Source: Bacilli bacterium
Lineage (GTDB): Bacteria > Bacillota_I > Bacilli_A > RF39 > UBA660
Length of the DNA stretch: 64,000 bases
Assembly: GCA_017404555.1 (NCBI GenBank)
Contig: JAFRCD010000002.1
Span: 59,793-123,792 of the forward strand
Direction of reading: 5' to 3'
Position 1 is the stretch's first letter. Each line of letters begins with the position of its first letter. Shown one piece after another: positions 5,725 through 29,692 of this stretch. A program made the translations under genes and the position numbers. The notes beneath the pieces were generated by a model. It worked only from the letters and a program-made list of their open reading frames with translations, ran no database searches and was not told the origin of the DNA.

Positions 5725-5794
5725 AATGTCTCCTCATTACCATAAAAATATCATATATTTAGTTTTATTTCAAATAAAAAGAATAGATATTAAT

Positions 5795-7135
5795 CTATTC
5801 CTTCACTTTTCTCTCTTCCTTCTTTAAGTGCATAACTAGTAGTGTTCCTCCTACACCAATACCGGCTAGTATTACATAAGGTAGTATTGTAAAGATTAGT
5901 CCTGTTACTGGTGACATTTCTTTTGTATTATAGAAATCTACTGTTACTGTGTTTGAATCAGTATTCATATTATATAACCCAGTAGCACTAACATAGTAGC
6001 CACTAGTAGAACTTCCTCCGTTTACCGAGAATGCTGGAGTGTAATCACCTGGACTCTCCTCAATAGTGAAATAACTTCCATAACAAGTCTTTCCATCAAC
6101 AGCAGCTAATTTCTTGACGCTAGGCGTAGTTGAAAAATCGTATTTCTTATGATCAGGATCAGGATCAATATCGGGAGTTTCTTCCCCACAATAACCCCCA
6201 GGAATTACATCAAATGTGTTTCCTTCACTTGTTACTTGTCCGATGGTTGCTGTCTGGCCATGTTTTAAATATATTGTAGTCGGGGTTCCATCAGTTATTG
6301 TTGTTGGATTAGTTATGGTATTACCATTATAGGTTACTGTTGCGTCTATTCCACTTATTGGATATACCCATCCACTACTATCAATTATATTTGGCACTGC
6401 TCCTTCAGTAGTTTCATCTTGAACCAAGCCACTATCATTATCTATATTTATTGTGAATGGAAAATACTTAGTTGTATCAGCCCCAATGCCTTTTACAGTT
6501 TTAGATAGTTCTATGTGCCCAAATCTATTAGGATTGGTTTCTAAATAATGATCTGCATATAAGACCCCAGAAACTGGGGAAACTTTTTCTTCGTCATACT
6601 CATACTCCTCAGTTTGCTCATTATAGACAAGCCGTCTAAGTATTAATGAGACAGTATAATTACCTGTTGGTGTATTATTAGCATCTACTACATTTCTTAC
6701 TGATATTGTCACATCATAAAAAGCTGAATCTGACGAAGGAATAAAATAATTATTTAATATTTTTCCTTCACCAGCCTCTAGGCTACCTTGAAGGATATAG
6801 TATTCATAATCGCCTGGTTTTGTAAATGTTAAGCTTGATAAATTCATTGTTGTAGACTTCGTTATTTGATAGTTAGTTGGGGTATCACTCGCTGTATAGT
6901 TTATTGTTGCAGTTGCTACATCATTATTGCTCGAATATTCCACAAGAGTATACTTCATACTAGCCACTATTGGATTTGCTGTGTTTCTTATAGTCTCCCT
7001 AATAGTTATACTACTTGGTCCAACCCAGGTTACTGTTCCTGCGGCTTTTGCTTCTTTTATGTTTAGACTTAGTACTCCTATTAGTACTACTACAAGCATT
7101 AAAAATCCATTACGTATACTAAATACTTTCTTCAT
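5795..7135 (-). CDS. Cell-surface protein with an SPVTG sorting signal (predicted sortase substrate); paralogue of 27674..29611
   Basis: N-terminal signal peptide; C-terminal SPVTG + hydrophobic stretch + KKEERKVKE. Shares N-terminal (AAGTVTW) and C-terminal (FGHIELSKTVKGI, TATIGQ) modules with 27674..29611. Confidence 0.6.
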   Translation of the reverse strand: MKKVFSIRNGFLMLVVVLIGVLSLNIKEAKAAGTVTWVGPSSITIRETIRNTANPIVASMKYTLVEYSSNNDVATATINYTASDTPTNYQITKSTTMNLSSLTFTKPGDYEYYILQGSLEAGEGKILNNYFIPSSDSAFYDVTISVRNVVDANNTPTGNYTVSLILRRLVYNEQTEEYEYDEEKVSPVSGVLYADHYLETNPNRFGHIELSKTVKGIGADTTKYFPFTINIDNDSGLVQDETTEGAVPNIIDSSGWVYPISGIDATVTYNGNTITNPTTITDGTPTTIYLKHGQTATIGQVTSEGNTFDVIPGGYCGEETPDIDPDPDHKKYDFSTTPSVKKLAAVDGKTCYGSYFTIEESPGDYTPAFSVNGGSSTSGYYVSATGLYNMNTDSNTVTVDFYNTKEMSPVTGLIFTILPYVILAGIGVGGTLLVMHLKKEERKVKE

Positions 7136-7143
7136 ATACTTAC

Positions 7144-7164
7144 CTACCTTATATATTTATTATA
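7144..7164 (-). promoter_or_regulatory. Conserved 21-nt promoter/leader motif (ctaccttatatatttattata) shared with 29622..29642
   Basis: An identical 21-mer lies upstream of both paralogous surface-protein genes. On the minus strand it contains TATAAT-like sequence. Confidence 0.4.
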
Positions 7165-7200
7165 GCTTATCATTAAGGAACGTGTCAATTAAATGGGGAT

Positions 7201-7224
7201 ATAAAAAAGAGGTTTAAACCTCTT
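7201..7224 (-). terminator. Rho-independent terminator of the agu operon
   Basis: Hairpin aagagg-tttaaa-cctctt immediately after the arcC stop, followed by a U-run on the transcript. Confidence 0.6.
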
Positions 7225-8148
7225 TTATTTTGTAATTATTGTTGCTTCATTACCTTCTAAAGCATTAGTTAAATTATTTAAATCAGTGATGATAGCATCA
7301 TTACCTGTTTCTTTAACAAACTCAATAGCTGCTTCTACTTTAGGAAGCATACTTCCTTTAGCAAAGTGTCCTTCAGCTATATACTTTTCCATAGTAGCAA
7401 TATCTACTTTACCAATATCTTGAGCATTATCAGTATTATAGTTAATCTGAGCCTGTTTTATATTAGTTAGAATAACTAATAGATCAGCATTAATATTACG
7501 TGCCATTAATGAACATAATTTATCTTTATCAATAACAGCACTAGCACCTTTAGTAGGTTCATCTAAATAGACAGGAATTCCTCCACCGCCACCAGCAATA
7601 ACTATATTATCTTTTTCAATTAAATCTCTGATGGTATCTATTTCTACTATTTCTATTGGTTCTGGTGAAGCTACTACTTTTCGGTAACCACGTCCGGCAT
7701 CTTCAACATAAGTATCACCACTAGTTTCTTTTAATTTATCAGCTACTTCTTTAGTATAGAATGGTCCGATTGGTTTAGTAGGGTTTTTAAATGATGGATC
7801 ATTCTTATCAACCTTTACTTGGGTAATTAAACTAACTACACTTTTACTGATATTTTCTTCATTTAAGACCTCTTTAATTCCTTTTTGTAAGTGATAACCA
7901 ATATATCCTTGGCTCATGGCAGTACATTCAGCAAGCGGCATATAAGGAATATCTTCATTATCAAGACTGTTTTCAAAAGCCAAGTTAATAATTCCTACTT
8001 GAGGACCATTACCATGACCAATTACTACTTTATCACCAGCTTTTACTAAAGGAACAATAGTCTTAACAGCTTCCTTAATTAAAGCTTGTTGCTCGTCGGG
8101 AGTATTACCTAAAGCATTACCCCCGAAAGCAATAACTATTTTTCTCAT
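7225..8148 (-). CDS. aguC: Carbamate kinase
   Basis: [13 protein letters not shown] ... GHGNGPQVG carbamate-kinase signature; last gene of the aguBDAC arrangement. Confidence 0.9.
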
Positions 8149-9245
8149 TTTTTACCACTAGGTAATTGTTGAGTTATACAGTGAATATTACCTCCACCTA
8201 ATAGTATTTCTCTAGCATAGATTGGTTCAATCTTACGACCAGGGAATACTTCTTCTAATAACTTAATTGCTTTTTCATCATTAGGATCATTAAATACTGG
8301 TAGAGCAATAAAACCATTACCGGTATAAAAGTTAACATAACTAGCCGCTAATCGATCTCCTTCTTCACGAGGTAGAGTTCCGTCAACAGCATCTACACCT
8401 TCACTTTCTTCTTTAGTAATTAGAATAGGTGCTGGTGTATACATCTTATGAATAACTAGTTTTCTTCCCTTAGCATCTGTTTCACTTTCTAAGTAATCAT
8501 ATGCTTCTTTACTTCTTTCATATTGAGGATCATTCTCATCATCAGTCCAAGCAAGTAGTACTTCTCCTGGTTTAACAAAGTTACACATATTATCTACATG
8601 ACCATTAGTCTCATCATTATAGATTCCTCTTGGTATCCAAAGAACCTTTTCTACATTTAAGTATTCTTTTAATTTATCCTCAATTTCTTCTTTACTCATA
8701 TGAGAGTTTCTTCCTTCTGATAATAGACATTCAGCAGTTACCATACAAGTTCCTTCACCATCAACATGGATTGATCCACCTTCTAAGATAAAGTCATCAG
8801 TACGGTAACTATCAACACGTTCTAATTCACACATTTTACGTGCTATCTTATCATCAGAATCCCATGGGAAGTATAATCCATCTACTAATCCTCCCCAAGC
8901 ATTAAATGTCCAATCAACTCCTCTTACTTCTCCTTCATCTTTAACAACGAAAGTAGCACCACAATCACGTACCCAAGAGTCGTCATTAGCCATTTCTACT
9001 ACTCTAACATTATCATCTAAATGATGACGAGCATTATCAAATTGTGCTTTAGAGACAATTACTGTCATAGGTTCATATTTACCAATAGTATTAGCTACTT
9101 TAGTAAATACTTCTTGAGCTGGTTTAGCACCTAGTCTCCAGTTATCTGGCCTCTCTGGCCATATCATATAACATCCATTATGATGTTCAAATTCACCTGG
9201 CATTCTATAGCCATCTTTTTTTGGTGTTGTTTCTAATCTTTTCAT
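8145..9245 (-). CDS. aguA: Agmatine deiminase
   Basis: The N-terminus [16 protein letters not shown] and the C-terminus [11 protein letters not shown] are typical of agmatine deiminase. Start moved to the Met preceded by an AGGAGG RBS (ATG at 9243-9245). Confidence 0.85.
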
Positions 9246-9292
9246 ATTTCCTCCTATAATTAAATTAGTAGGTTTAAAACCCACTAATTTTT

Positions 9293-10702
9293 TTATTCTT
9301 TTACCTTTTTATCTTTTATTCTGGCTACGAGTATTTCCTCAATAATGAATGAGATTACTACTCCGGCAATAAGTGGAATGTTACCTATAATATAATCTTT
9401 TGTAAAGTCACCGAATAATGTGAATAATACTCCTAGTATTAATATTACAAATGGTACGATAGCAGCAACATGAATCATTACATTACCACCAGGTACTTTG
9501 TAAGGTCTTTTAGCATCTTTATCTGTTTTTCTAAGCTTCAAGAAAGCTAAGAACATTGGGATATAACCAACAAGTAGAGTTATCCAACTTAAACAGAAGA
9601 ATAAACTGAAGCCAGCTTCAAATGATTCACTAACGAAACTAGCAATTATTCCAGCAATAACAATTATAGAAGCTACGATACCATTAATGATTGAAGCCAT
9701 ATATGGTACGCCTTCTTTATTAGTTTTAGTAAATGCTTTTGGTAGCGAACCATCTTCAGCAGCATATTTAGCTACTTCGTTAACTCCAAAGCTCCATGAA
9801 GCTATATTAGCAATAAATGTATAAACAAACATACATCCAGCAATTATAACTAGTACTTTAATAGCAGAAGCACCTAAACCAACAGTAGCAAATAAAGCAT
9901 TTAATACATCAACAACTATTTCGGCACCTGCTCCTATCCAATCAGCATTAGCTGGTAGGGCAACATTGAATCCTGTTGCTGGTAAAACATAGAAGAAGGC
10001 CATTAAAAGTCCTCCAATGATTAGGGCTTTTGGTATTTGTTTCTTTGGATCATCCATATCATTAGCCCAAGTTCCTACTACTTCAAATCCCATGAAGTTG
10101 AATAGGATGATAGAAACGAATGATAAATCTCCTAAATTAAGTCCAGGGAATAAATCCTTTGCACTAGTAATTGGGTTAGCACTATGTCCTGTTGATATAA
10201 AGGCATAAATACCAAGAGCTCCAATTCCTAATAGTAATACTACTTTAAATACTGTTCCTAAGTTAACAATATATTTACTTTCGCCAACACGTTTAGTTCC
10301 TAAGAATGTAACAAACCAAATGTATAGTAATTGAATACAAAGTAGTGTTACAATACTTAGTTCTACACCGAACATTCCCGCAATAATATCTGTCACAGCT
10401 ACAGCTAATGAAGATATCCATAATGGGAAGTTAATCCAGTAGTTCCAGGCAACACGACCTGCCCATTTAGGGCCAAAAGCACGTTTTACCCAGTCATACA
10501 TCCCTCCTTCTGAAGGATATGTTGTTCCAAGCTCTGCTGTAATCATTCCGTATGGTAAGCAGAAGCATACCAATAGTAGGATCCACCAGAAATACTGAGT
10601 ATTACCAATAGCGGCGGTTGGCATTACAGATTCACACACTAAGGTAAGACAAACAGTTCCTAAAATGGCATCCATCAATTTAAATTTTCTTTTCTTTGCC
10701 AT
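9293..10702 (-). CDS. aguD: APC-family amino acid/polyamine antiporter, probably the agmatine:putrescine antiporter
   Basis: About 12 TM helices and an APC-family profile; sits between aguB and aguA as in known agu operons. Confidence 0.7.
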
Positions 10703-10703
10703 A

Positions 10704-11693
10704 TTAATTTTCCTTTCCTAATAATTTATTACATTCTTCACAGGCTTCATCCTTCTTACCCATGAAGTATACTAAAAGCCCTCTCATGGCTGTTAGTCGA
10801 TTTTCAGCTTCATCGAAGCAAATAGAAACATTCTCATCATCCATAACATCATCAGTTACTTCTTCACCTCTAGTTGCTGGTAAACAGTGCATAAACTTAA
10901 CGTTTGGAGCACATTTAGCTAGTAACTCTTTATTAACTTGATATTTAGGATAGAATATTTTCATTCTCTCTTCTTTAGGCATTTCTGATTCATATAATCC
11001 ATACCAAACATCGGTATAAACGAAATCAGCATCTTTTAAGGCTTCTTCAGCATTATCAGTTATTAAGTAAGTACCTCCAGATACTTTACAGTTTTCTTCT
11101 AAAGAATCAATATAATCTCCTCGAAGTTGGAATCCCTCTGGTCCAAAGTGAACAAAGTGACCACCCATCTTCGTAATCATCATTCCAAGTGATGCACATA
11201 CTTGAGTACAATCACCAACAAAGACAACTTTGATATCTTCTAATCCTTTACCTTCTGGTAAGTGTTCAAAGATAGTAATGATGTCACCCATTTCCTGAGT
11301 TGGATGATTATAATCACTCATACCATTTAGTACTGGTACTTGTGAATATTGCGCTAACTCAGCAATAGTCTTATGCTCAATTACTCTAGCCATGATAATA
11401 TCAACAAGTCTTGACATAACAATAGCCGTATCCTTCATACTCTCATGTTTACCAAGTTGTAAGTTTCCTGGAGCAAAATACTGAGCATGTCCTCCTAACT
11501 GTGTCATCGCTGTCTCAAATGAAACCCTCGTTCTCGTAGAAGCTTGTTCAAAGATCATTCCTAAAGTCTTATGATATAACGTATTTAACGTATGACCAGC
11601 TTTAAGAGTTTTTTTGATTAATAAGCTTAACTGGAGAATATCCAAAAGTTCCTCTTTAGTAAAATCTTGGGTTGTAACATAATCTTTTTTCAA
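10704..11693 (-). CDS. aguB: Putrescine carbamoyltransferase
   Basis: Carbamoyltransferase STRTR motif (STRTRVSFE) and HCLP motif. The start codon appears to be TTG (caa at 11691-11693 on the plus strand), preceded by an AAGGAGG RBS. Confidence 0.8.
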
Positions 11694-11726
11694 ATTATCT
11701 ACTCCTCCTTATATTATTACAATACA

Positions 11727-11755
11727 ATTATAATTCTTATTTAAAAATTTTACAA
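11727..11755 (-). promoter_or_regulatory. Sigma-A-type promoter for the agu operon (TTGTAA-17-TATAAT)
   Basis: On the minus strand, -35 ttgtaa (11750-11755) and -10 tataat (11727-11732) are separated by exactly 17 nt and lie about 35 nt upstream of the aguB RBS. Confidence 0.5.
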
Positions 11756-11787
11756 TACTTTTACAGTTTCTTTACACTACTTTACTA

Positions 11788-13574: not shown

Positions 13575-13575
13575 C

Positions 13576-15502: not shown

Positions 15503-15535
15503 CTATTATAATTATACCTGTTATTTATTTAAAAG

Positions 15536-15563
15536 TAAATAAAAAGTCAGTTATTACTGACTA
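15536..15563 (-). terminator. Rho-independent terminator after lepB
   Basis: Hairpin agtcag-ttatta-ctgact overlapping the lepB stop, followed by a U-run on the transcript. Confidence 0.5.
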
Positions 15564-16070: not shown

Positions 16071-16121
16071 CTAATATTATAATTAATCTTCCTCTCAGCT
16101 TCAAGTAAAAAAAAGAAGTGT

Positions 16122-16487
16122 TTACGCTTCTTTGTCTTTTTTCTGAGTTCCTCTTTCTTTAATACGGTATTGACCAACCATATCTTTTAAGAAGTTTAGT
16201 TTAGCTCTTCTAACTTTTCCTTTACGAACTACTGTAATTTTATCCACTTTTGGTGAATGAATTGGGAATGTTCTTTCTACCCCAACACCACTGGATACTT
16301 TACGAACAGTAAATGTCTCAGAAACGCTACCACCACGGCGAGCAACAACTATTCCTTCAAAAGCTTGGATACGTTCTCTTTTACCCTCGATGATCTTAAC
16401 ATCAACACGAACAGTATCTCCTACACGGAATTCAGGAACATCTTTTTTCATTTGTTTAGTATTAATCTTATCAATAACATTACTCAT
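16122..16487 (-). CDS. rplS: 50S ribosomal protein L19
   Basis: Full-length match to the L19 family (FRVGDTVRV ... RRGGS ... FTVRK). Confidence 0.95.
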
Positions 16488-16611
16488 GAATAGGTCTCCT
16501 TTCTAAATATATAATCCAGTAATCATTACATTAATAAGCGGATTACTTTCCAACGTGTTAAATTATACCATCTATTTAGAGAAAATGCAAGAAGATAAAG
16601 AAAAAGAACCA

Positions 16612-17304
16612 TTATTTGGCTCTTATTGCATATATATATGAATTTATTTTAGCTATCCAAGTACCGCTTTCAGCATATCTTGGACCAATAAGTTCAACTG
16701 TATTTAGTCCTCTACTATAGTAATTACGAGCTAGATTATCAATCATACCAACAATTCCGGCATCAAGTGTTGGATAACCTTTATAACCACCATTACCACA
16801 GACTGGAGATCCTTTTTGACCACCAACATTATTACAAGCTACTACTAGATTACTACAACGCCAATTACAACCAGTTTCGTGTAACATAATAGCGGTCGCT
16901 ACTATAGGGTCAACACCAACTTGTAAAGAGTGCTCCGCAATTAAACGTCCTTTACCAGCTAAATTACTATTTAAACTACGATCTAGTTTAGCAGCTAGTT
17001 CATCAAGCGTCATATGCTCATATACTTCTACTCTTGGTGGAGTTACTGGTTTTGGTTCTTCTTTTGGTACCGCTTCCATAGAAACTGCTTCTACTTTAGC
17101 CTCTTCTTTTTTAGGCTCTTCAGTAACCTTAGGAACTACTCTTTTCGCAGCCGCTAAATCTTTAACTTCCACTACATCAGTAGAAATAACTGTACTTTCT
17201 ACTTTTTTCTTTAAATTTATATTGTGTTCAACAAAACCTGCTACAGCAAACATCACCCAAGCTGTAACAACTAGTAGAGCCCCAATTATTCGATATTTAT
17301 TCAT
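16612..17304 (-). CDS. Membrane-anchored putative peptidoglycan hydrolase (GH73 glucosaminidase-like, cysteine-rich)
   Basis: N-terminal TM helix and a Lys/Glu/Pro-rich linker. The C-terminal domain has GH73-like blocks (LHETG, ACNNVGGQKG, YKGYPTLDAGI ... ARNYY). Confidence 0.4.
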   Translation of the reverse strand: MNKYRIIGALLVVTAWVMFAVAGFVEHNINLKKKVESTVISTDVVEVKDLAAAKRVVPKVTEEPKKEEAKVEAVSMEAVPKEEPKPVTPPRVEVYEHMTLDELAAKLDRSLNSNLAGKGRLIAEHSLQVGVDPIVATAIMLHETGCNWRCSNLVVACNNVGGQKGSPVCGNGGYKGYPTLDAGIVGMIDNLARNYYSRGLNTVELIGPRYAESGTWIAKINSYIYAIRAK

Positions 17305-17367
17305 GAGTACACCTCTTTATAAACATATTAATATTACCATCAATATATTATCTTGTCAATTCGACAA

Positions 17368-18942
17368 TTATCGCAACTTAAATGTTAAATAAGCTCGTTT
17401 ATAGACAAGAATTAGCGCTATTATAATATATAAAGCAGCTGCAATTATAACCATTAATGAAAAGTTTAAAGGAGCAAAGTGATAATGAGTACTTTCATAA
17501 CAAACAAAATAAGTTAAAAAGCTTACTATACTATAACTAATACTTTTCATGCGTAGATTTACATCATAAGGTTGTAATAAATAATAGATTACCAAATAAT
17601 GTACTGAGAAAAAGACACTAATCGCAATAACAGCTATAAATAATAGGATGTATTCCATAATACTCAAAGGATTAGTACTTAGAATTAGGATTGTTATTAA
17701 GCCTCCTCCCAGTACTAAGGCTGGTAAAAGATTAACTTTAGTGACTATTTTAAGTCTTTCTTTAAAAAGATTTAATATTACTTTTGGTTCCCTATAAAAA
17801 TTAAAGGAAAGCATAAAATGATCACAGTTAATAAACATGGCTTCAGTAATAATAGAACCTCGATTAATAAAATACATGATAATCAAAAGTGCTGGTAAAA
17901 ATTTAATAATGCCATCCCCTATTTCTTTAGCGTAATTATCACTAAATAATATTAAAATAATAGCTCCAATAATTACTACCCCAATGAAAAAAGTAAAATG
18001 AAGAGCTGATCTTTGTAGTATTGCTTTATGTCTTTCAAAGAAAATAGTATTAAAATAATTATAGCCATGTTTATTCTTTAGTTTTCTAGGATCAATATGA
18101 TAGTCTTTTTTTCTAATTTCTACAGCCATTTCCCTAGTAGTCATATTTTTACTTTCTTGTGCCATTATAACACTTTGACTATTAATCTGTTTAAAGAAGA
18201 ATGGTAGTTTATCTTCTTTAGATATTTTAATAAAACTAAGAATAGCTAATCCTAAAGAAATAATAGATCCAATAAATAAAAACAAGAAAGGAATCTTTAC
18301 TTTTAATAGAACTATTAATAATAGAATAATTCCTACAATAATTAGAACTGTCGTTACTAAAAAGGTCGAAGTAATTACTTTTTTATTGTATTTTTTATAA
18401 TATAAAATATTTAGATATTCACCTATTACTTTTATAGATACTGATATTAAGGATATCAATAATATAGTTACAATATCTAAGTGTAAGATACTATTAAAAG
18501 TAAGCATTACTAGTGTATTAAGAAGTATATCACGAATAAAACTATATATAATATAAGCACAACTATACTTATTCGCATCCATTCCTAATAAAATAACATT
18601 ATAATACTTTTTAATACCACTTTTTAAAGTATCGGTATTTAAACACATTCCCACAATAGTAAGCGCAAGAAAGACTTCTTTAAAACAACTTGTTCTTTTC
18701 AAAAGATATAAAAGATAAATAATAATTCCAAAATAGAATATTCTAAAAGCAACTAATCTTAAAAAAGATAAAACTAATGATAAGTATCTAATAAAAGTCT
18801 TTAAACCTTTTTTCTGATAGTAATTACCCGTAAAAATACCTTTAAGAAGTTTGTTATGGGTAAGAGCATAAACAAAAGAATTAAAGGCTGATACAATATC
18901 AATTTCAAAAGACTTTTTTAATGTCTTAAACATCTTTCTCAT
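17368..18942 (-). CDS. Large polytopic membrane protein, probable permease partner of the adjacent ABC ATPase
   Basis: Many hydrophobic helices; overlaps the upstream ATPase gene. Confidence 0.45.
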   Translation of the reverse strand: MRKMFKTLKKSFEIDIVSAFNSFVYALTHNKLLKGIFTGNYYQKKGLKTFIRYLSLVLSFLRLVAFRIFYFGIIIYLLYLLKRTSCFKEVFLALTIVGMCLNTDTLKSGIKKYYNVILLGMDANKYSCAYIIYSFIRDILLNTLVMLTFNSILHLDIVTILLISLISVSIKVIGEYLNILYYKKYNKKVITSTFLVTTVLIIVGIILLLIVLLKVKIPFLFLFIGSIISLGLAILSFIKISKEDKLPFFFKQINSQSVIMAQESKNMTTREMAVEIRKKDYHIDPRKLKNKHGYNYFNTIFFERHKAILQRSALHFTFFIGVVIIGAIILILFSDNYAKEIGDGIIKFLPALLIIMYFINRGSIITEAMFINCDHFMLSFNFYREPKVILNLFKERLKIVTKVNLLPALVLGGGLITILILSTNPLSIMEYILLFIAVIAISVFFSVHYLVIYYLLQPYDVNLRMKSISYSIVSFLTYFVCYESTHYHFAPLNFSLMVIIAAALYIIIALILVYKRAYLTFKLR

Positions 18943-19630
18943 CCTTTAAGGCATTAATAATCTTGTTTTTATACTTAGTAGTATTTAAGTTTTTCTTTTC
19001 TACTAATTCTAACTTTTTATTATTAATAATTACTATTTCATCACATAAAGATAGTGCTAGTTCTAATATGTGAGTTGAAAAAATAATAATATGTTCCTTC
19101 TTTTTCTTCTTTAAGAGTGTTTTCATCTCTTCACTAACAACAACATCTAATGATGTTAAAGGTTCATCTAAAAGCAAAACATCTTTATTATCAATAAAAT
19201 TAATTAAAAGTTGCATTTTGTTTTTCATACCATGAGAATAATCCTTCATTAATTTATCCCCATCTTCTTTAGATAATCTAACCATCTTTAGATATTCATC
19301 AATACTTTTTAAATCTTTTATTTTATCTTCATTAATATCTAAGAAGAATTGTAAGAATTCTCTACCAGTTAAAAACTCAGGTACTTTAGGAGTTGCGATA
19401 ACATAGCCAATATCTTTAGACTTTAGAGGGAATCTAATTTCTTTTTCTAAGTAGATATCACCACTAGTTTTTTCAATATCCTCATTTAGACAATTGAAAA
19501 AGGTCGTTTTACCGGCTCCATTACGACCAATAAGACCATATATCTTACCTTCTTCAAAAGTAAAGTTAACATCGTCTAATACTCTATTATCACCATAATC
19601 TTTAGTTAAGTTTTCTACTACTAACTTCAT
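18926..19630 (-). CDS. ABC transporter ATP-binding protein
   Basis: Walker A GRNGAGKTT, Q-loop, and signature-like region LLLDEPLTSLD. Confidence 0.8.
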   Translation of the reverse strand: MKLVVENLTKDYGDNRVLDDVNFTFEEGKIYGLIGRNGAGKTTFFNCLNEDIEKTSGDIYLEKEIRFPLKSKDIGYVIATPKVPEFLTGREFLQFFLDINEDKIKDLKSIDEYLKMVRLSKEDGDKLMKDYSHGMKNKMQLLINFIDNKDVLLLDEPLTSLDVVVSEEMKTLLKKKKKEHIIIFSTHILELALSLCDEIVIINNKKLELVEKKNLNTTKYKNKIINALKDEKDV

Positions 19631-19643
19631 AAATCTTCTCCTC

Positions 19644-21017
19644 TTAGTTATTATATTTATTGATTAAATCAGTAAACTCCTTTTCTAATTCTTCTAATCT
19701 TTCTTTAGTTTTGGCCTCAAAACGAGCTGTTATATTAGGGCCAGTATTACTAGCTCTAACTAAAGCAAAGGCATCAGGATATAATACTTTAACCCCGTCA
19801 ATATCTAAATACTTATAGTTTTTTTCTTCTGCATACTCTTTGATTCTTTCTACAACATTAAATTTCTTATCATCAGGTGAAGCAAATTTTATCTCTTCAG
19901 TAGAATAGTATTTTTCCATACCCTCTAATAATTCATCAACAGTTTTATCAGTCTTAGAAAGAATCTCTAATAATCTTAGACCTGCATAAAGTCCACTATC
20001 AAAACCTGGCCAACGGTCTCTAAAGTAAACGTGTCCTGATAACTCCCCACCAAAAGGCAAGTCATCATCACGTACTTTAGTCTTAGTATAAGAATTTCCA
20101 GTTCTAAAACAAATACCCTTGCCGCCTAATTTTTCAATTTCATCTTCTAAAGCTTTAGAACATTTAATATCATATAGAAACTCTTTTTTAGAAACTTTAT
20201 TAATAATATCTCTAATGATAATGATCATATATTGATCAGTAGGAATAAAGTTTAAATTACTAGATACTACTCCCAAACGATCTCCATCTCCATCAAAAGC
20301 TAATCCAACATCAGCACCCTCTTCTTTCACTTTAGCTTTTAATTGGTCTAAATTCTCTTCTACACAAGGATCGGGATGATGATTAGGAAAAGTACCATCT
20401 GATTCACCATTAATAGTTATTAAATCTATTGGGAACATTTTATATAATTCCTCAGCAATAATACTAGTAGTTCCATTACCTGGATCAATTACTACTTTTA
20501 GTCTTCTATCGCCGAAGTGTAAATTTTCTTTAAATAGTTTTAAATAATCTTCTCTAATATTCTCTTCTCTTAGATGACCTTCGCCTTCAGTGAAGTTACC
20601 AGCAGTAGTAAAATAATAGAAATCCTCAATCTCTTTTCCTTTAATATTACCAGACTCATCAATAGCCATTTTAAAACCATTATCATCTTTTGGATTATGT
20701 GAAGCTGTTACCATGATGCCTGAAGGATTATTATATTTAATAGCGGCATAATAATACATAGGAGTCGTGACCAATCCTAGAGAAATAACATCAGTACCAC
20801 TTTCTAAAAGACCTTTAATTAAGGCATTATATAACTCATCACTAGAGATACGGTTATCATGACCTACTAAACAGGTATCTTTACCAAACTTTTTTAGATA
20901 ACTACCAAAACTTTTACCTATGGTATAAGCAAAGTTAGCATCTAAATCTTTACCCGCAACACCTCTAATATCATACCCTCGAAATACACTTTTATCTAAT
21001 TCTTTTAAAATCTCCAT
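19644..21017 (-). CDS. Phosphoglucomutase/phosphomannomutase family protein
   Basis: Active-site TASHNPKDDNGFK phosphoserine loop and the GDGDR Mg-binding motif. Confidence 0.8.
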   Translation of the reverse strand: MEILKELDKSVFRGYDIRGVAGKDLDANFAYTIGKSFGSYLKKFGKDTCLVGHDNRISSDELYNALIKGLLESGTDVISLGLVTTPMYYYAAIKYNNPSGIMVTASHNPKDDNGFKMAIDESGNIKGKEIEDFYYFTTAGNFTEGEGHLREENIREDYLKLFKENLHFGDRRLKVVIDPGNGTTSIIAEELYKMFPIDLITINGESDGTFPNHHPDPCVEENLDQLKAKVKEEGADVGLAFDGDGDRLGVVSSNLNFIPTDQYMIIIIRDIINKVSKKEFLYDIKCSKALEDEIEKLGGKGICFRTGNSYTKTKVRDDDLPFGGELSGHVYFRDRWPGFDSGLYAGLRLLEILSKTDKTVDELLEGMEKYYSTEEIKFASPDDKKFNVVERIKEYAEEKNYKYLDIDGVKVLYPDAFALVRASNTGPNITARFEAKTKERLEELEKEFTDLINKYNN

Positions 21018-21534: not shown

Positions 21535-21653
21535 AGTCTTCTCCTCTTGCTAATTTTTATCTGAATAATTAATAGTAATAAAAAATGATTAAAAGTGCCT
21601 AGGCATTCCATCGTTATCAACTATAAAAATGATATCATAGATACCCAAAATAA

Positions 21654-21682
21654 GCAAAAAAAAGAACTATAAGTTCTTTTTA
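21654..21682 (-). terminator. Rho-independent terminator after the ZIP transporter gene
   Basis: Hairpin gaact-ata-agttc (21664-21676) followed by a U-run on the minus transcript. Confidence 0.5.
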
Positions 21683-22432: not shown

Positions 22433-22441
22433 AGTTACCTC

Positions 22442-23257: not shown

Positions 23258-23258
23258 A

Positions 23259-24089
23259 TTATTTATCTCCTAACTTATAACCAATAGTAAGTCCTAAAAA
23301 GACTAAAACTAAGGCTACTAAAACTTCATATAGACTAGGACTTAGTCCAAATAATGGAACAATTAAAGCTATTATTGAAGCTAAAACAAATCCTAGAATA
23401 CCATAATAAGTTTTTGTTTTATATTTATTGAGTAACATTTCAATTAATTTAGCAATTAAGACTATGCCAATTAAGATACCAAGTCCAAATGGTATTAAGA
23501 TTAATAAACTATGAGTAAAGTTATCCGTCAAATGACTAATAGTATTAATAATTGGTTTATAATATCCTAAAAGCATTAGAACAAAAGATCCCGATACACC
23601 AGGAATGATCATAGTACCAGCCGCTACCATTCCAACTAAGAATAATAAACAGCCACTACCAAGGGTTAAAGTATCTAAAGTTACTGCTTTAGTATCGGTC
23701 TTCATAAATGTCATAGCCATAATTAAACCAAAGGTAATTAGAAAGACTATTACATTAGAGACTGTTACCTTCTCTTTTTTTACTTTACGACCAATTAATG
23801 GTACTCCACCTAATATAAGAGCAATAAAGAATAAAGTAGTTGGGAATGGATATTTAGAAAGACACCAATCAATTACTTTACTCATTAATAGAATAGCTAA
23901 GCCAGCACCAATAATAATTGGTAATAGAAACTTAATATTCTTCTTAAAATTAGTAAAGAAGTGACTAATAGCTTTAATTAGGTCTTCATAAATACCCAGA
24001 GTAATAGCTAATGTTCCCCCACTTACTCCTGGGATAATATTAGCTATTCCAAAGACAAAGCCCTTAATTCCTAAAATAATATTTTTCAT
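23259..24089 (-). CDS. DUF368-family membrane protein (PopT-like putative undecaprenyl-phosphate translocase)
   Basis: Duplicated PGVSGG/PGVSGS motifs characteristic of DUF368. Lies immediately upstream of uppP with a 2-nt gap. Confidence 0.7.
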   Translation of the reverse strand: MKNIILGIKGFVFGIANIIPGVSGGTLAITLGIYEDLIKAISHFFTNFKKNIKFLLPIIIGAGLAILLMSKVIDWCLSKYPFPTTLFFIALILGGVPLIGRKVKKEKVTVSNVIVFLITFGLIMAMTFMKTDTKAVTLDTLTLGSGCLLFLVGMVAAGTMIIPGVSGSFVLMLLGYYKPIINTISHLTDNFTHSLLILIPFGLGILIGIVLIAKLIEMLLNKYKTKTYYGILGFVLASIIALIVPLFGLSPSLYEVLVALVLVFLGLTIGYKLGDK

Positions 24090-24097
24090 GTCATCAC

Positions 24098-25654
24098 CTA
24101 GTTTTCAAAATATTCCATCATCAAAGGAACAATATGCTGTTTTCTCGACATACATCCTTTAATAAAAGTTCCTTCTTGTAAATCATCAACACCATAGACC
24201 ATTTCTATAGTTTCTTTAGCTTTGGTATTATATAAAACATAAGAACCATCTTTATTAATATCAGTAATATATAAAGTAACTAAACTATAATTATTGGCAC
24301 TAGCTACTTGATCTAATACTTTAATATATTCAGGAAGTTCTTCTTTTATTTCAGTATAGTTATTAGTGAAGAACTGTCCAACTGCAAAGATATGATCTTT
24401 GGTATTATAAACTTTAAAGTCATTATAAAGAATATCTTCTTTACTCATGTTTTCTAATGAATTACCTGCAGCAATTAATTCCATACCATATCTTTCATAA
24501 TCAATACCGGTAATTCTAGATAGTTCTTTAACTGCTTTAATATCAGCTTTAGTAGCAGTAGTACTCTTTAATACTAGAGTATCTGATAAAATACCAGAAA
24601 GTAACAATCCCGCTATTTCTTTAGGTATTTCTATCTTACTAGCAGCAAACAAATAATAAATAATAGTACTAGTAGAACCAACAACCATAGCTGTATAATT
24701 AAGAGCTTTATTAGTAGTTAAATTACCCAAATTATGATGATCAACTATTTCAATAATTTCAGCTTCATCAATACCATCAGCACTTTGCATCTTATCATTA
24801 TGATCAACTAATACTACTTGCTTTCTTCTCTTGTCATTTAAATCAGTTATCTTTAATAATCCTAAACATTTATTATGTTTATCAACTATTGGATAATTAG
24901 CATGTTTAAGCTTTTTATTAACATCTAATACATTATCAACATAATCATCTTCGGAGAACTTAATCGTATTATAATTCTCAACCAAAGTATTAGTATAATT
25001 AGAAAGACTAATTAATCTACCAACATTATAACTATCATATAAAGTAGATATAACATTTATTCTTTTTTCTTTAACTATTTCTAATTCAGAAGCAGATAAC
25101 TCATTACTATTAATCAAAACAATTAAATCAATATCATCAAGAGAAATATTACTTATCTTATCAGTAACAATTACTCTTTTATTAACTAAAGTACTTTCTA
25201 TTTCAGAAGTCACTTTTAATACTTCTGTTCCTTTTAAAACATCTAATAAATTATCATAAGAAGTTATTAACTTATTAGTATTATTTAAAAAATCACGAGC
25301 TAAATCTTTAATTGTAATAAGTCCTAGAAATTCTTTATCTTTATTAACAACGGGAATAGCTGTTAAATCATCAGTTACCATCTTTTGATAGGCTGTATAA
25401 AGTGGTTCATCCTCTTCAATATAGAAATCATGATGATAGTTAATGTCTTTTAATTGTAATTTAACATCATTTAAATACTTTGGTACTGCAACACGAAAAT
25501 AATCGAGAACATATTTAGTCTCCTTATTAATGTCTCCTAATACACGTGCTTCAGTATTCATCCCCAATTTATTCTTTAAATAAGAAAGGGCAATAGATGA
25601 AACAACGGAATCAGTATCAGGCTTCTTGTGACCAAAGATATATACCTTATCCAT
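24098..25654 (-). CDS. ppaC: Family II (Mn-dependent) inorganic pyrophosphatase with a CBS-domain insertion
   Basis: DHH N-terminus (FGHKKPDTDSVVSSIA), an internal CBS pair, and the DHHA2 C-terminus. Confidence 0.85.
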   Translation of the reverse strand: MDKVYIFGHKKPDTDSVVSSIALSYLKNKLGMNTEARVLGDINKETKYVLDYFRVAVPKYLNDVKLQLKDINYHHDFYIEEDEPLYTAYQKMVTDDLTAIPVVNKDKEFLGLITIKDLARDFLNNTNKLITSYDNLLDVLKGTEVLKVTSEIESTLVNKRVIVTDKISNISLDDIDLIVLINSNELSASELEIVKEKRINVISTLYDSYNVGRLISLSNYTNTLVENYNTIKFSEDDYVDNVLDVNKKLKHANYPIVDKHNKCLGLLKITDLNDKRRKQVVLVDHNDKMQSADGIDEAEIIEIVDHHNLGNLTTNKALNYTAMVVGSTSTIIYYLFAASKIEIPKEIAGLLLSGILSDTLVLKSTTATKADIKAVKELSRITGIDYERYGMELIAAGNSLENMSKEDILYNDFKVYNTKDHIFAVGQFFTNNYTEIKEELPEYIKVLDQVASANNYSLVTLYITDINKDGSYVLYNTKAKETIEMVYGVDDLQEGTFIKGCMSRKQHIVPLMMEYFEN

Positions 25655-25703
25655 CCTATCACTTACTTTCTCTTAAATTATAGCAAAAATATATCAATAA
25701 GTA

Positions 25704-25739
25704 AAATAAAAAAATCTAAAATCTTTTTCTGATTTTAGA
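25704..25739 (-). terminator. Rho-independent terminator after rpmF
   Basis: Inverted repeat tctaaaatc/gattttaga with a 7-nt loop, followed by a U-run on the minus transcript. Confidence 0.55.
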
Positions 25740-25741
25740 CT

Positions 25742-25942
25742 TTATTCTTCAGTTTCAACAACTTTATTTTTCTTATAAGATCCACACTTAGGACATACAC
25801 GATGAGGTTTAATCATTTCTCCACAGCTTGGACATTTTACTAAACCTTTTACTTCGATTGCATTATGGCTTCTTCTAAGTCTTTTTCTTGTTTTTGATAC
25901 CTTACGAGCTGGTACTGCAAAAAGTTGAATATTAAGTCTCAT
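25742..25942 (-). CDS. rpmF: 50S ribosomal protein L32
   Basis: [18 protein letters not shown] and the CxxC...CxxC zinc-ribbon. The ORF carries a 9-aa N-terminal extension relative to typical L32. Confidence 0.85.
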
Positions 25943-25946
25943 TTTA

Positions 25947-26414
25947 TCACTCCTTATTTATTTCTTCTAATAATTCTTTAAAAGGATTATTGGTATTTAT
26001 CTCTTCATCTTCCCCTCTTAAAGACCAATCTTTTCCTTGATACTTGGAAAAGTCATTGACTTCGGTATACCTAACCGGTACCTCTAGGACAATATTTTGC
26101 CACAAAAACTCATATAAATCAAGTGAATTTGGTAAATTTTCCTCGTTTTCGAAGAGATTACCATCTACTTTAGCATTAAACTCATAATAAACATCTTCTA
26201 AAGAAATAGCATCTTCTAAAAGCATTTTCCCAGTTATATCAAGATCAACTTTAATTTCATCAGCACTATCTCTAAAAATACTACCCAATACTTTAATACC
26301 ATTTAATTCCTTAACATCACTATTTTCAAAGTAGTTTTTAGGAATATCTACTACTCTATCTATTTCTATTTTATCAACATTATGCGAATTGAGCATTGTT
26401 AAATCAATATTCAT
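25947..26414 (-). CDS. yceD: YceD/DUF177-family protein (large-subunit accumulation protein)
   Basis: Acidic 155-aa protein immediately upstream of rpmF, the conserved yceD-rpmF arrangement. Confidence 0.55.
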
Positions 26415-26514
26415 ATTATCACCACTATTATTATAGCGATAAATAATCTTAAAGGCAATTCCATTTGCACCTTTTTATTCTTTTTGATAAACTTTGTGTA
26501 AAGGAGGGATCTCT

Positions 26515-27660
26515 ATGAAAAGCATTGGTATAATCGCTGAATATAATCCTTTTACTAAGGGACATCTATATCATTTAGAAAAAGTTAAAGAAATGTTTCC
26601 TGATTATGCAATAATTGCGGTAATAAGTGGTAACTTTACTGAACGAGGTGATGTTTCTATAATTGATAAATTTACTAAAACTGAAATAGCTTTAAAGATG
26701 GGAATAGACTTAGTAATAGAACTACCTTATGGCTATGCGACTGATTCAGCTGATTTCTTTTCTTATGCTGCTTTAAAAATATTAAATGAATTACAAGTAG
26801 AAAAAATAGTCTTTGGTAGTGAAAGTGCTAATATAGATGATATGAAAATTATTGCTGAAACTCAAGTTAATAATAAAGACTTCGATAATTTAGTAAAGAT
26901 TAATATGCGACTAGGTACTAACTATCCAACAGCCATCTCCAATACTATATATGAACTAACTAATAAGAAGATTACTACTCCTAATGACCTTTTAGGAATA
27001 AGCTATTTAAAAGAAATATATATAAATAAATATAATATAGAACCTATATCTATTAAAAGAACAAGTGATTATAATAGTACTAGTCTAAATAATAAATATC
27101 CTAGTGCCAGTGCGATTAGAGAGGCTCTAGAAAAAGGTAAAGAAATAAAGAATTATGTACCAAAAGAAGTATACAATATATTAAAGAAAACCACCCTGCA
27201 CTTTCAAGATGATTACTTTAGTATCTTAAAATATAAAATAATGACTACAGACGATATATCTATTTATCATGGTATTGATGAAGGAATTGAAAATAAAATT
27301 AAAAAGAGTATCTTAAAAGCCAACAATACTGACGAATTAATCGATCAAGTAAAATCAAAAAGATATACTTATAACAGAATCAAAAGAATGTTAAACCATA
27401 TACTATGTGAATATACTAAAGACAAAAAGAAAGAAATTAAAGATATTAATTATATTAGAGTATTGGGTTATAATGATAAAGGAAAAGTATACTTAAACAA
27501 AATAAAGAAAGATACAAACATTAAAATAATAAGTAACTTTTCTAAAGCTAAAGATCCTTTAATGGATTTAGAATTCTTAGCTACTATTACTTATGCTTCT
27601 ACTCTAGATGAAAAAGAAAAACAAAATTTAATAGAAAAAGAATTTAAGCATCATCCTTAA
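26515..27660 (+). CDS. tmcAL: tRNA(Met) cytidine acetate ligase (UPF0348/YlbM family nucleotidyltransferase)
   Basis: N-terminal IGIIAEYNPFTKGHLYHL HxGH-like motif. Start moved to the ATG at 26515 behind an AGGAGGG RBS. Divergent from yceD-rpmF, as in Bacillus ylbM-ylbN-rpmF. Confidence 0.7.
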   Translation: MKSIGIIAEYNPFTKGHLYHLEKVKEMFPDYAIIAVISGNFTERGDVSIIDKFTKTEIALKMGIDLVIELPYGYATDSADFFSYAALKILNELQVEKIVFGSESANIDDMKIIAETQVNNKDFDNLVKINMRLGTNYPTAISNTIYELTNKKITTPNDLLGISYLKEIYINKYNIEPISIKRTSDYNSTSLNNKYPSASAIREALEKGKEIKNYVPKEVYNILKKTTLHFQDDYFSILKYKIMTTDDISIYHGIDEGIENKIKKSILKANNTDELIDQVKSKRYTYNRIKRMLNHILCEYTKDKKKEIKDINYIRVLGYNDKGKVYLNKIKKDTNIKIISNFSKAKDPLMDLEFLATITYASTLDEKEKQNLIEKEFKHHP

Positions 27661-27673
27661 ATTCTTTTTTATA

Positions 27674-29611
27674 TTACTTTTGATGTTTCACCTTTAATTT
27701 TTCTCTATTTTGAAATAATAACACTCCTCCAACACCTATACCGACTAGTATTAGATAAGGTAGGATTGTTAGAAATAATCCTGTCACCGGTGAACCTTCT
27801 CTTTGATTATAGAAATTAACAACATTACCATTATGAGTTATCGAGTTAGATCCCGTATCATTTCCACTAGACTCACTTCCACTATTTATCTTAAAGGTTG
27901 TGGTATAGTCACTTTCTGTACCTTCTATTATCTTGTAATAATCATCTATAGAAATAGAGTCGTAAGTATTGTTGTTATATGTAAACTGTCCTATAGTAGC
28001 TGTTTCTCCATGATTTAGAGTAATTGAATCTTTTGTACCACTCTTACACTTAGTTACTTCAGAACCATCTTCAGGTACTCCTGTTCCTTTTATTAAGTAT
28101 TTCTCACTTCCAGAGTAACTTTGACAAGCACTACTTGCAGCATCATCTACTTGAACACTGAAACTAAAGTCTTTAGTTCTATCAGCCATAATACCTTTAA
28201 CTGTTTTAGTTAGTTCTATATGTCCAAACTTAGTTTCATCCTTTGGCTCATTAAAAGGCATATTACTTACTTTGGTATCATTATCATCTTTAATAACAAA
28301 CTTAGCATTAAAGTTTCCTGTTGGAGTTCCATTTTGATCAGTTACATTTGTTACTTGTACTATTACTGTATATTCATTATCATTATCTACTGGATATGCA
28401 CTATTACTAGTAGCAGTCTCTTTCACAGTCAATTCATAATTGCCTGGTTTTTTAAAGCTTAGTCCCATATTAGCAAAATTAATTGTTGTACTCTTATTTA
28501 CTGTATAACTATTACTTACAGTTTCAGTTCCAGCGAAAGATATGTCTTGGGTGTAGAATACTATTCCACTACCAAAAGTTGGTGATTGGGATGGAGATGA
28601 TACTTGACTACCCTTTATAACGTTTGATCCTGCTGATTTAGTAGCGATTATATTATCAATATTAGAAGTTCCACTCCCATAGTTTACTGATATTTGGGTT
28701 CCTGATTGCGTAGCTGCATTAGTAAAGGCACCACTATAATTTGTTGGGTTAGCTAATATCTGAATTGTCCCAGAAGCATTTGTACAACCATTGAACATAT
28801 TATTAACATTAGTCACCCTTGAAGTGTCCCAATTACTAATACTATTTATATTGCTCAAACTACTACAGCTATCAAACATCCCTCCCATATTTGTTACTTT
28901 GGAAGTGTTCCAATCTGATAAAGAATTTATACTTGTTAAAGAACTACAGTAAATGAACATGGCAGACATAGTAGTTACATTTGAAAGATCCCACGCACTT
29001 GTTGCATCTACACTAGATAATTGTGAACAATATGCAAACATCCAAGATGTATTAGTTGTTTTAGAAGCATCTACTAAACTAAGGCCTGATATATCCATTA
29101 ATCCTTGCATGTTTCTAAACATGTTGGCAGAAGATGAATTCAAGTATATTTTATCTGCTTCACTATAATAATACATCGTTCCGTCCGTACTATCAAAAAA
29201 GATGTATATTGGAAACTCCGAATTGGCTACCGATACTGTGTTTGCTGCGGTTGGAACAAAACCACTTGGTAAAGAACCAGCTTTTTTTATAGATTTTATT
29301 GCAGTGTCAGGTGAGCTGTATGTCTTTGTTGAACCATTAGCAAGAGTTTTCATTATTCCATTAACTGTTGTTCCTGTGTTAAAAGTTGCCAATCTAATTA
29401 GTGAGGTATCTTCTGTTGATATACTATAAGTAAAATCTACTACAGGAGCATTATAAACGTTTTGTATTGTCCTTGATATTGTTGCAGTACTACCATCTGG
29501 CCAGTTAACAGTACCTGCCGCTTTTACTTCCATTGTTTTGAATGTTAACACTCCTACTAGTGCTACTACAAGTATTAAAGTTATATTGTATAAATTAAAT
29601 ACTTTTTTCAT
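27674..29611 (-). CDS. Cell-surface protein with DUF285-type repeats and an SPVTG sorting signal; paralogue of 5795..7135
   Basis: Signal peptide. Tandem repeats of about 26 aa with W-[DN]-[TL]-S-x-V-T-x-M-x-x-M-F-x-x-C. C-terminal module shared with 5795..7135, then SPVTG + hydrophobic stretch + NREKLKVKHQK. Confidence 0.6.
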   Translation of the reverse strand: MKKVFNLYNITLILVVALVGVLTFKTMEVKAAGTVNWPDGSTATISRTIQNVYNAPVVDFTYSISTEDTSLIRLATFNTGTTVNGIMKTLANGSTKTYSSPDTAIKSIKKAGSLPSGFVPTAANTVSVANSEFPIYIFFDSTDGTMYYYSEADKIYLNSSSANMFRNMQGLMDISGLSLVDASKTTNTSWMFAYCSQLSSVDATSAWDLSNVTTMSAMFIYCSSLTSINSLSDWNTSKVTNMGGMFDSCSSLSNINSISNWDTSRVTNVNNMFNGCTNASGTIQILANPTNYSGAFTNAATQSGTQISVNYGSGTSNIDNIIATKSAGSNVIKGSQVSSPSQSPTFGSGIVFYTQDISFAGTETVSNSYTVNKSTTINFANMGLSFKKPGNYELTVKETATSNSAYPVDNDNEYTVIVQVTNVTDQNGTPTGNFNAKFVIKDDNDTKVSNMPFNEPKDETKFGHIELTKTVKGIMADRTKDFSFSVQVDDAASSACQSYSGSEKYLIKGTGVPEDGSEVTKCKSGTKDSITLNHGETATIGQFTYNNNTYDSISIDDYYKIIEGTESDYTTTFKINSGSESSGNDTGSNSITHNGNVVNFYNQREGSPVTGLFLTILPYLILVGIGVGGVLLFQNREKLKVKHQK

Positions 29612-29621
29612 ATGCTTTTCC

Positions 29622-29642
29622 CTACCTTATATATTTATTATA
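29622..29642 (-). promoter_or_regulatory. Conserved 21-nt promoter/leader motif (identical to 7144..7164)
   Basis: ctaccttatatatttattata lies upstream of 27674..29611. Confidence 0.4.
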
Positions 29643-29692
29643 CCTTTTATTATAATGTAAAAACAAGGTATTTAGCCTTGTTTACAATTCTT

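Follow-up and report, generated by a model that had tools for sequence, protein, structure and literature searches.

Why do two surface-protein genes, 22 kb apart in the genome of an uncultured Bacilli bacterium (contig JAFRCD010000002.1, assembly GCA_017404555.1), carry the same 21 nucleotides (nt) in front of their start codons? The two genes, here called A and B, were picked out by a sequence-only reading of a 64-kb stretch of this contig (the window; positions count from its first letter unless another locus is named), which took them for a paralogous pair with a duplicated promoter/leader and suggested co-regulation or recombination-driven cassette exchange. The paralogues and their 21-mer are genuine, though the observation is largely an ordinary one: a short identical motif upstream of two paralogues is usually an inherited core promoter. 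We consider it likely that A and B are members of a dispersed, lineage-specific family of self-contained genes for pilin-fold surface proteins, each with an inherited core promoter and leader. The chief interest of the locus lies in this unusual genomic organisation of the pilin fold and in the evidence for exchange between paralogues.

From a pair to a dispersed gene family

Both open reading frames (ORFs) are present as claimed, A at 5795..7135 (446 amino acids) and B at 27674..29611 (645 amino acids), each on the minus strand (−). The A-type protein comprises a Sec signal peptide (AKA followed by AGTVTW), two pilin-like β-sandwich domains, the motif SPVTG, a transmembrane (TM) helix and a KKEERKVKE tail; the B-type protein has A's signal peptide, N-terminal strands, pilin domains and SPVTG, plus an inserted head of leucine-rich repeats (LRRs). 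The proteins had been described as sharing two terminal modules and differing in the middle. They are indeed homologous, but in BLASTP the similarity is far wider than two modules: an N-terminal block (residues 1-64, 48% identity) is followed by a second that aligns residues 75-446 of A with residues 354-645 of B (33% identity, E 7e-42). Far from being confined to signal peptide and sorting signal, the homology thus covers two blocks and both pilin domains. The DUF285-type repeats, for their part, do sit in B and are genuine (PF03382, E 2.6e-21, 76 bits against a cut-off of 25; PARCEL repeat TIGR02167, E 1.3e-22, 79.1 bits against 30; A has none). The middle, however, is not so much different as interrupted, B being A plus an insertion of ~290 residues (B ~65-353) that splits homologous parts of the N-domain. 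This B-type-specific insertion of DUF285/PARCEL LRRs occupies 28553..29419 (−), with the Pfam match at residues 162-282 (28766-29128). It enters at the hypervariable loop of the A N-domain, between strands 58-66 and 72-80, and the number of repeats differs among B-type paralogues.

Database annotation captures different parts of this architecture. The NCBI product name for B (P0033) is BspA family LRR surface protein. The domain DUF7601 (PF24547, gathering threshold 27 bits) scores above threshold in B (29.0 bits) and narrowly below it in A (25.7 bits), and the precomputed database annotation gives PF24547 for A (P0001) and most family members. A weak NCBIfam match to a 'MiiA motif' at B residues 34-46 (E 0.0099) stays under the cut-off; our literature search gave no explanation of this motif.

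How large is the family? A homologue search returned 38 close relatives, all from metagenome-assembled genomes (MAGs) of uncultured 'Bacilli bacterium' or from metagenomes. The MAG of the window itself holds at least nine members, recognised by their IJH13 locus tags or by lying on the same contigs: six A-type (P0001, which is A, P0003, P0014, P0016, P0022 and P0026) and three B-type (P0033, which is B, P0034 and P0036). Speaking of a pair is therefore misleading, the more so as neither A nor B has its closest relative in the other, even though tblastn across the window finds no paralogue besides these two. Each member is a lone gene right behind a housekeeping gene and co-directional with its neighbours. 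The upstream neighbours are a carbamate-kinase-like gene for A and a histidine kinase gene for B; elsewhere, the paralogues follow leuS (P0003, locus L001), rplQ (P0014, L002), spo0A (P0016, L004), a glucosaminidase gene (P0022, L005), pnp (P0034, L006) and valS (P0036, L007), or stand between PRK and gap (P0026, L004). Spacing between paralogues is ~8-50 kb, over three contigs. The genome carries FemAB, VanY and penicillin-binding protein genes, which means that the organism builds a cell wall; with Spo0A besides, it is a walled and probably spore-forming Firmicute, and the MAG appears to come from a ruminant gut.

In a full profile search, 2,983 representative clusters matched at E <= 1e-3, and 55 still did so at E <= 1e-30; the proteins mostly have 340-370 residues. 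Among species-representative genomes, the only relatives belong to MAGs of Candidatus Saccharibacteria, obtained from rumen, sheep gut and horse faeces (L008-L022). These are proteins of 320-370 residues with 22-31% identity and the same architecture; they have a signal peptide, and their sorting signals are SVLTG, ILTG, VNTG or VKTG. Such sequence matches suggest a pilin-like family common to gut Bacilli and bacteria of the candidate phyla radiation.

A probable pilin-like stalk on the cell surface

What kind of protein do these genes encode? An AlphaFold2 (AF2) model of A, built on an alignment of 29 family sequences, reached a predicted local distance difference test score (pLDDT) of 82.6. 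Foldseek against the PDB placed the Streptococcus pyogenes major pilin Spy0128/T-antigen on top (3B2M, 3GLD; E 2.4e-17, probability 1.0), with PitB also among the matches and TM-scores of 0.63-0.67, normalised on the target. Searching PDB sequences with the family profile (hmmsearch) recovered the same two proteins, PitB at E 7e-6 and Spy0128 at E 4e-4. As modelled, the mature protein is built like a two-domain FctA/T-antigen pilin, that is, of two CnaB-like domains.

The chemistry that stabilises such pilins has a likely counterpart in the C-domain. Two residues, K212 and N403, never vary in the family alignment, and a third, E360, shows at least 90% conservation; in the profile alignment these residues fall on Spy0128 chain positions 166, 245 and 290, which, with a constant offset of 13, we take to be K179, E258 and N303 of the literature numbering, the C-domain isopeptide triad. 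For DUF7601, which is CnaB-like, a Lys-Glu-Asn isopeptide bond has been predicted (PMC12617251). To judge by these residues, an isopeptide bond would form in the C-domain of A and its relatives.

The predicted signals for export and anchoring are equally regular. Both A and B begin with a predicted Sec signal peptide (MKKVF, a hydrophobic core and AKA before AG), which is conserved in 36/36 aligned members, residues 7-26 of A being helical in the AF2 model. At the other end, the sorting signal of A consists of SPVTG, LIFTILPYVILAGIGVGG and KKEERKVKE; T411 and G412 are invariant, and (S)PVTG, a TM segment and a basic tail recur in every member. SrtB of Clostridioides difficile cleaves motifs of the (S/P)PXTG class (PMC4155245), to which SPVTG conforms. 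The contig of P0022, P0034 and P0036 also encodes a candidate enzyme, at L005 19985-20794, whose Pfam Sortase score of 34.1 bits exceeds the cut-off of 26.6. In the window, no sortase was identified among the 20 proteins scanned against Pfam, the remaining window ORFs lying outside that scan, and next to A and B there is no sortase or pilus-assembly gene, the neighbours being housekeeping genes. Export via Sec and covalent anchoring to peptidoglycan by a class-B-like sortase is the most likely route. The anchored proteins would act as stalks, stabilised by the C-domain bond; A-type proteins would display hypervariable loops, B-type proteins a BspA-type LRR head that emerges from an N-domain loop, and a role as adhesin or antigen is conceivable for both.

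Could the proteins instead be true pilus shaft subunits, polymerised head-to-tail by a sortase that joins the SPVTG threonine to a lysine of the next subunit, possibly into mixed pili? The best structural and profile matches are, after all, backbone pilins, and streptococcal Spy0128 and PitB pilins are assembled by class-B-type sortases. There is also a candidate acceptor: K184, at least 90% conserved, sits in the loop preceding the last N-domain strand, roughly where Spy0128 has its linking Lys161 (a position that we infer). However, there is no pilus island, and no sortase, SipA/LepA-like chaperone or minor pilin lies beside any copy examined; the sorting motif is SPVTG, not [EQ]VPTG; the isopeptide triad of the N-domain is missing; and a head as large as that of the B-type proteins would hinder the stacking of subunits. 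We therefore regard polymerisation as a somewhat unlikely alternative to anchored monomers.

Two large unannotated membrane or surface proteins (518 residues, and 594 residues with a bacterial Ig-like domain) are encoded ahead of the sortase gene in L005 15400-21320, and a gene of at least 996 codons follows it; none of the three products has an obvious sorting signal.

The 21-mer as probable core promoter and leader

What, then, is the 21-mer? In the window, CTACCTTATATATTTATTATA occurs exactly at 7144-7164 and 29622-29642 only, and a search with three mismatches allowed yields no third site (shuffle expectation 0.13). A repeat search widens the match to 29 nt, of which 27 are identical (7140-7168 and 29618-29646). 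Read on the coding strand, TATAATAAATATATAAGGTAG comprises a TATAAT −10 hexamer and the first 15 nt of the leader, whose downstream part reaches into the Shine-Dalgarno (SD)-like AAGGTAGG; the distance from the end of the 21-mer to the ATG is 8 nt in A and 10 nt in B. At A (7144..7164, −), the −10 lies at 7164-7159 and is followed by the 15-nt leader, with the SD-like AAGGTAGGTAAG at 7150-7139 and the ATG at 7135-7133. Our promoter scan calls a sigma-70-type promoter here (7159..7188, −), with TTGACA, an 18-nt spacer and TATAAT matching the consensus at 12/12 positions. At B (29622..29642, −), the −10 TATAAT at 29642-29637 is followed by leader and SD, AAGGTAGGGAAAAGCAT, and by the ATG at 29611.

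The idea of a duplicated promoter/leader holds well beyond these two genes. Homologous promoters precede every paralogue examined, and the upstream regions of all paralogues can be aligned from the −35 through the ATG. Lined up at the −10, fourteen family promoters share TATAAT-N3-(T)ATATAAG(G/A)TA. Relative to the 21-mer, family members range from 0 to 5 mismatches: one for P0014 and P0002, two for P0026, three for P0031, and four for P0034, P0036 and a P0027-like gene. A somewhat different leader, AAGATAAAATAGGAG, precedes the other four B-type genes that were examined. Given the members with one, two and three mismatches, the exact identity of A and B is the end of a continuum rather than a private link between them.

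We extended the search to ~206 kb of this genome and of sister genomes. All but three of the sites with up to four mismatches precede family members; the exceptions are the gap promoter (L004 3622-3642; TATAATAAATATATAAGAAAG, two mismatches, the first 17 nt being those of the 21-mer), a neighbouring gene for an 815-residue surface protein (L001 16178) and one four-mismatch site within a coding region (L004 15091). Over this range, then, the motif does not stand in front of many unrelated genes. On the strength of these alignments, the 21-mer is the common core promoter and leader of the family, and co-regulation of A and B is plausible.

Three further observations concern individual promoters. 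The gap gene with its 21-mer-like promoter stands directly after the paralogue P0026, and it is conceivable either that the family borrowed from a strong housekeeping gap promoter or that gap borrowed from the family. The gene for the 815-residue protein in L001 is in tandem with the P0027-like gene, and both have TTGACA-N17-TATTAT promoters with the 21-mer-like leader ATATAAGATA. Finally, in the promoter of the spoVS-locus paralogue (P0005/P0018; L023 ~2625-2650, and L024), about nine TA dinucleotides extend into the −10. Tracts of this (TA)n kind can cause phase variation; the length is equal in both samples, and the run is found at this paralogue only and at neither A nor B.

Might the conserved leader be more than a leader? 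The 15 nt past the −10 (AAATATATAAGGTAG, core ATATAAG[G/A]TA) could be an operator or an element of the 5′ untranslated region recognised by a dedicated regulator, which would make the family a regulon, perhaps together with gap and another surface-protein gene. This is compatible with an inherited promoter, and the conservation, seen in 14/14 family promoters as well as at gap and the 815-residue surface-protein gene, goes further than a −10 box requires, the motif being otherwise rare in the ~206 kb. But the motif lacks dyad symmetry, has no regulator gene beside it and does not match Rfam (in the window, an Rfam scan returned two tRNAs only and no RNA element upstream of A or B), and it varies at up to 5 of its 21 positions among members. 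A/T-rich initial transcribed regions are, moreover, common in strong promoters of low-GC Firmicutes. A dedicated regulator is thus unlikely.

Terminators and the duplicated unit

Where does the duplicated unit begin and end? Upstream of A, a hairpin and T-run (7205..7226, −) ends the carbamate-kinase-like gene, and A is thus a separate transcription unit. Its own predicted terminator (5776..5800, −) is a weak, A/T-rich 8-bp hairpin with T5 over the A stop codon, on which the scan made no call because it has fewer than three GC pairs; at the same position in the paralogues, a hairpin over the stop codon appears to be kept despite changes on both arms. Upstream of B, the hairpin AAACAAGG-N7-CCTTGTTT with a T-run (29661..29683, −) follows the histidine kinase gene. 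With a promoter and an upstream terminator at each, A and B would both be monocistronic genes with short leaders.

In the B-type genes and in P0026, homology runs further upstream, through the hairpin TGTAAACAAGG-N-CCTTGTTTTT. We considered that AACAAGG...CCTTGTT might be a generic terminator of this genome and rejected this, as in the window and the fetched loci it is found solely upstream of family members, namely the B-type paralogues and P0026. The hairpin accordingly belongs to the duplicated unit: whole transcription units, including the upstream terminator, were duplicated.

As we picture it, each unit starts with a sigma-70 promoter and a leader, ~20-25 nt long, that includes a Shine-Dalgarno sequence; the gene itself encodes a pilin-like protein with a strongly conserved Sec signal peptide and ends in its own terminator, and the B-type subgroup would add the upstream terminator hairpin. 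The 21-mer would have been inherited through duplication of the whole unit and kept by constraint on promoter and leader, which together would explain why all copies carry it with 0-5 mismatches.

Just beyond the B stop codon, a 14-bp A/T-rich hairpin with A- and T-run flanks (27635-27669) lies within the 3′ end of a convergent HIGH-nucleotidyltransferase gene (26494-27660); it may be a bidirectional terminator.

Evidence for exchange between paralogues

Do the copies also recombine? The proposed cassette exchange is borne out for coding segments, by a 681-nt tract of B found at the pnp locus of another strain, but not for the promoter. This putative gene-conversion tract (27772..28452, −), in the 3′ half of B, is 96.5% identical to P0037, the pnp-locus paralogue of the other strain (nucleotides +1250..+1930 of that gene), with 24 differences in 681 columns and an exact run of 171 nt. 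The upstream flank of P0037 is 97-100% identical to the pnp locus of the present genome (L006), while the tract itself is only 73-84% identical to P0034, the resident gene there. Two assemblies, L027 and L028, made from different samples with different assemblers, show no difference across the P0037 gene and 400 nt on either side. Judging from these comparisons, the mosaic is best explained by non-allelic gene conversion. It retains the promoter of its own locus, and the evidence hence supports exchange of coding segments, not of promoters. Protein mosaics across strains are seen in P0010 and P0012 as well. A repeat search at A and B for flanking inverted, direct or simple repeats, as a mobile cassette or invertible promoter would have, returned only the 29-nt promoter repeat and the terminator hairpins. 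Three processes would diversify the family: divergence of the loops, a changing number of repeats, and the conversion of gene segments from one paralogous locus to another.

Given such exchange, might the exact 21-mer itself be the product of a gene conversion or promoter swap that was recent and specific to A and B? The 21-nt run does exceed the longest exact run between the two coding regions (11 nt, at 69% identity), the leader is the differing AAGATAAAATAGGAG in the other four B-type genes examined, and segmental conversion is known in the family. Yet the identity breaks off sharply on both sides (27/29), the flanks being unrelated or carrying indels; the graded mismatches in P0014, P0002, P0026 and P0031 form a continuum; the sole documented mosaic gene, P0037, kept its resident promoter; and a 21-nt tract is too short to separate conversion from constraint. 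We judge a recent swap highly improbable. Mere chance in an A/T-rich genome (~28% GC; with three mismatches allowed, two or more matches arose in 2 of 100 shuffles) is effectively refuted by the paralogue promoter alignments, for both copies are exact, lie in the same distance class from the ATG of homologous genes and fall within a promoter that can be aligned across all paralogues.

Several observations weigh against parts of the account given here, namely a dispersed family of anchored, pilin-fold proteins with an inherited promoter and occasional exchange. The AF2 model of B, built on a seven-sequence alignment that is too shallow, is confident (pLDDT ~90) only at residues ~70-340; as the model is unreliable outside the LRRs, the topology of the insertion rests on the sequence alignment. 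No conserved lysine is found in the family alignment on the first strands of the N-domain (AGTVTWSGPSSITIRETI), and Gln116 of A takes the place of the catalytic Glu117 of Spy0128, though B-type proteins keep the glutamate (E398); the N-domain is therefore probably not cross-linked. The best NCBIfam match of the L005 sortase is class B sortase (E 2e-16), yet at 59.9 bits against a cut-off of 153.75, and its gene adjoins no family gene. The −35 of B is poor (TTGTTT, 3/6, within the terminator T-run); it is our own assignment, the promoter scan having made no call. More generally, the promoters, the start sites and any co-expression of A and B are predictions, and the scarcity of the 21-mer holds for the ~206 kb searched. 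As to exchange, the paralogues within this genome are 65-76% identical in DNA without long identical tracts, the longest exact ones (47 and 67 nt) lying in the signal-peptide/first-strand region, from which it follows that conversion here is neither frequent nor recent.

One further mosaic (P0005/P0018/P0002) was set aside as evidence for recombination. L023 carries the spoVS-locus allele (100% identical to L024) up to gene position +800 and is P0002-like from there on, including a downstream YhcG/DUF1016 gene that is 99.7% identical to that of L025, where it follows the rplQ-linked paralogue. As the downstream flank also switches locus, rearrangement through paralogues and assembly chimera are both compatible with the data, and the case is ambiguous.

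Other surface-protein genes nearby

Apart from A and B, the window holds a third probable sortase substrate, of unrelated sequence: a 533-residue ORF (739-2340, −) whose product contains a SpaA (CnaB-like) domain (PF17802, E 1.2e-11) and ends in PPVTG, a TM segment and the tail RIKKRFN. Its listed TTG start overlaps the upstream gene, which leaves the true start uncertain. In L001, the 815-residue surface protein (16212-18659) shows weak DUF11-type and InlB B-repeat matches and ends in KSPNTT and a TM tail; its tandem partner, the P0027-like family member, lies at 18754-20067. A 636-residue protein of the window (35869-37779, −) has an N-terminal prepilin-type methylation motif (PF07963, E 5.4e-06) and may belong to a type IV pilus or competence pseudopilus cluster.

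Significance and relation to known systems

What does such a family tell us? The FctA/T-antigen fold is not limited to single-copy genes in streptococcal pilus islands: in uncultured ruminant-gut Bacilli it would have expanded into dispersed, self-contained genes with a common promoter, some of them fused to BspA-type LRRs, with exchange of segments between loci. For annotation, this offers a reading of the 'hypothetical protein' and 'BspA family' entries in such MAGs, namely as (S/P)PXTG sortase substrates with a predicted isopeptide-stabilised stalk. A bolder reading makes the paralogues a working repertoire for surface variation, all expressed from near-identical promoters, with conversion reshuffling a coat of pilin-fold stalks, some in mixed pili and some tipped by LRRs. 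If true, this would be a sortase-dependent counterpart of pilE/pilS or vsp in a Gram-positive gut commensal, and the distant gut Saccharibacteria relatives would hint at cross-phylum exchange; we think it decidedly unlikely.

Among known systems, the FctA/T-antigen pilins (Spy0128 of S. pyogenes, PitB of S. pneumoniae and S. oralis) are the closest in build: they share with the present family two tandem CnaB-like domains, the Lys-Glu-Asn triad of the C-domain, a C-terminal sortase signal and variation concentrated in surface loops. They differ in nearly everything around the fold. Each FCT or PI-2 locus has one shaft-pilin gene, whereas here at least nine single-gene copies are dispersed over a genome, outside any pilus island and with no sortase, SipA/LepA-like chaperone or minor pilin adjoining the loci examined. 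The streptococcal sorting motif is EVPTG, QVPTG or VTPTG rather than SPVTG, the N-domain triad is not conserved here, and sequence identity is only 11-15%. The head of the B-type proteins, in turn, recalls the tip adhesins RrgA, GBS104 and Spy0125 (PMC12617251), in which vWFA or thioester domains are likewise set into a loop of a pilin stalk domain; the insert of the B-type proteins is instead a BspA/DUF285 (PARCEL) LRR array, with a topology derived from alignment.

For wall anchoring, the SrtB system of C. difficile (PMC4155245) offers the nearest parallel, its substrates combining an (S/P)PXTG-class motif (here SPVTG, and PPVTG in ORF 739-2340) with a hydrophobic segment and a basic tail; in both cases, too, a single sortase, class-B-like and unlinked to its substrates, has been found, in the present case so far. 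The sortase in our genome is distant from the class B model, however, and its putative substrates are pilin-fold proteins of a large paralogous family, known from sequence. Finally, the Mycoplasma vsp/vlp and Neisseria pilE/pilS systems come to mind, here compared from general knowledge. There are no silent cassettes in the present family, since every copy has its own promoter and SD; the copies are scattered among housekeeping genes, and neither A nor B shows an invertase or a switch repeat; and the proteins are predicted to be anchored by sortase, rather than being lipoproteins or type IV pilins. What the present family has in common with these systems is a large set of paralogues in which promoter, leader and signal peptide are conserved, the mature part diverges, and segments are exchanged between copies.

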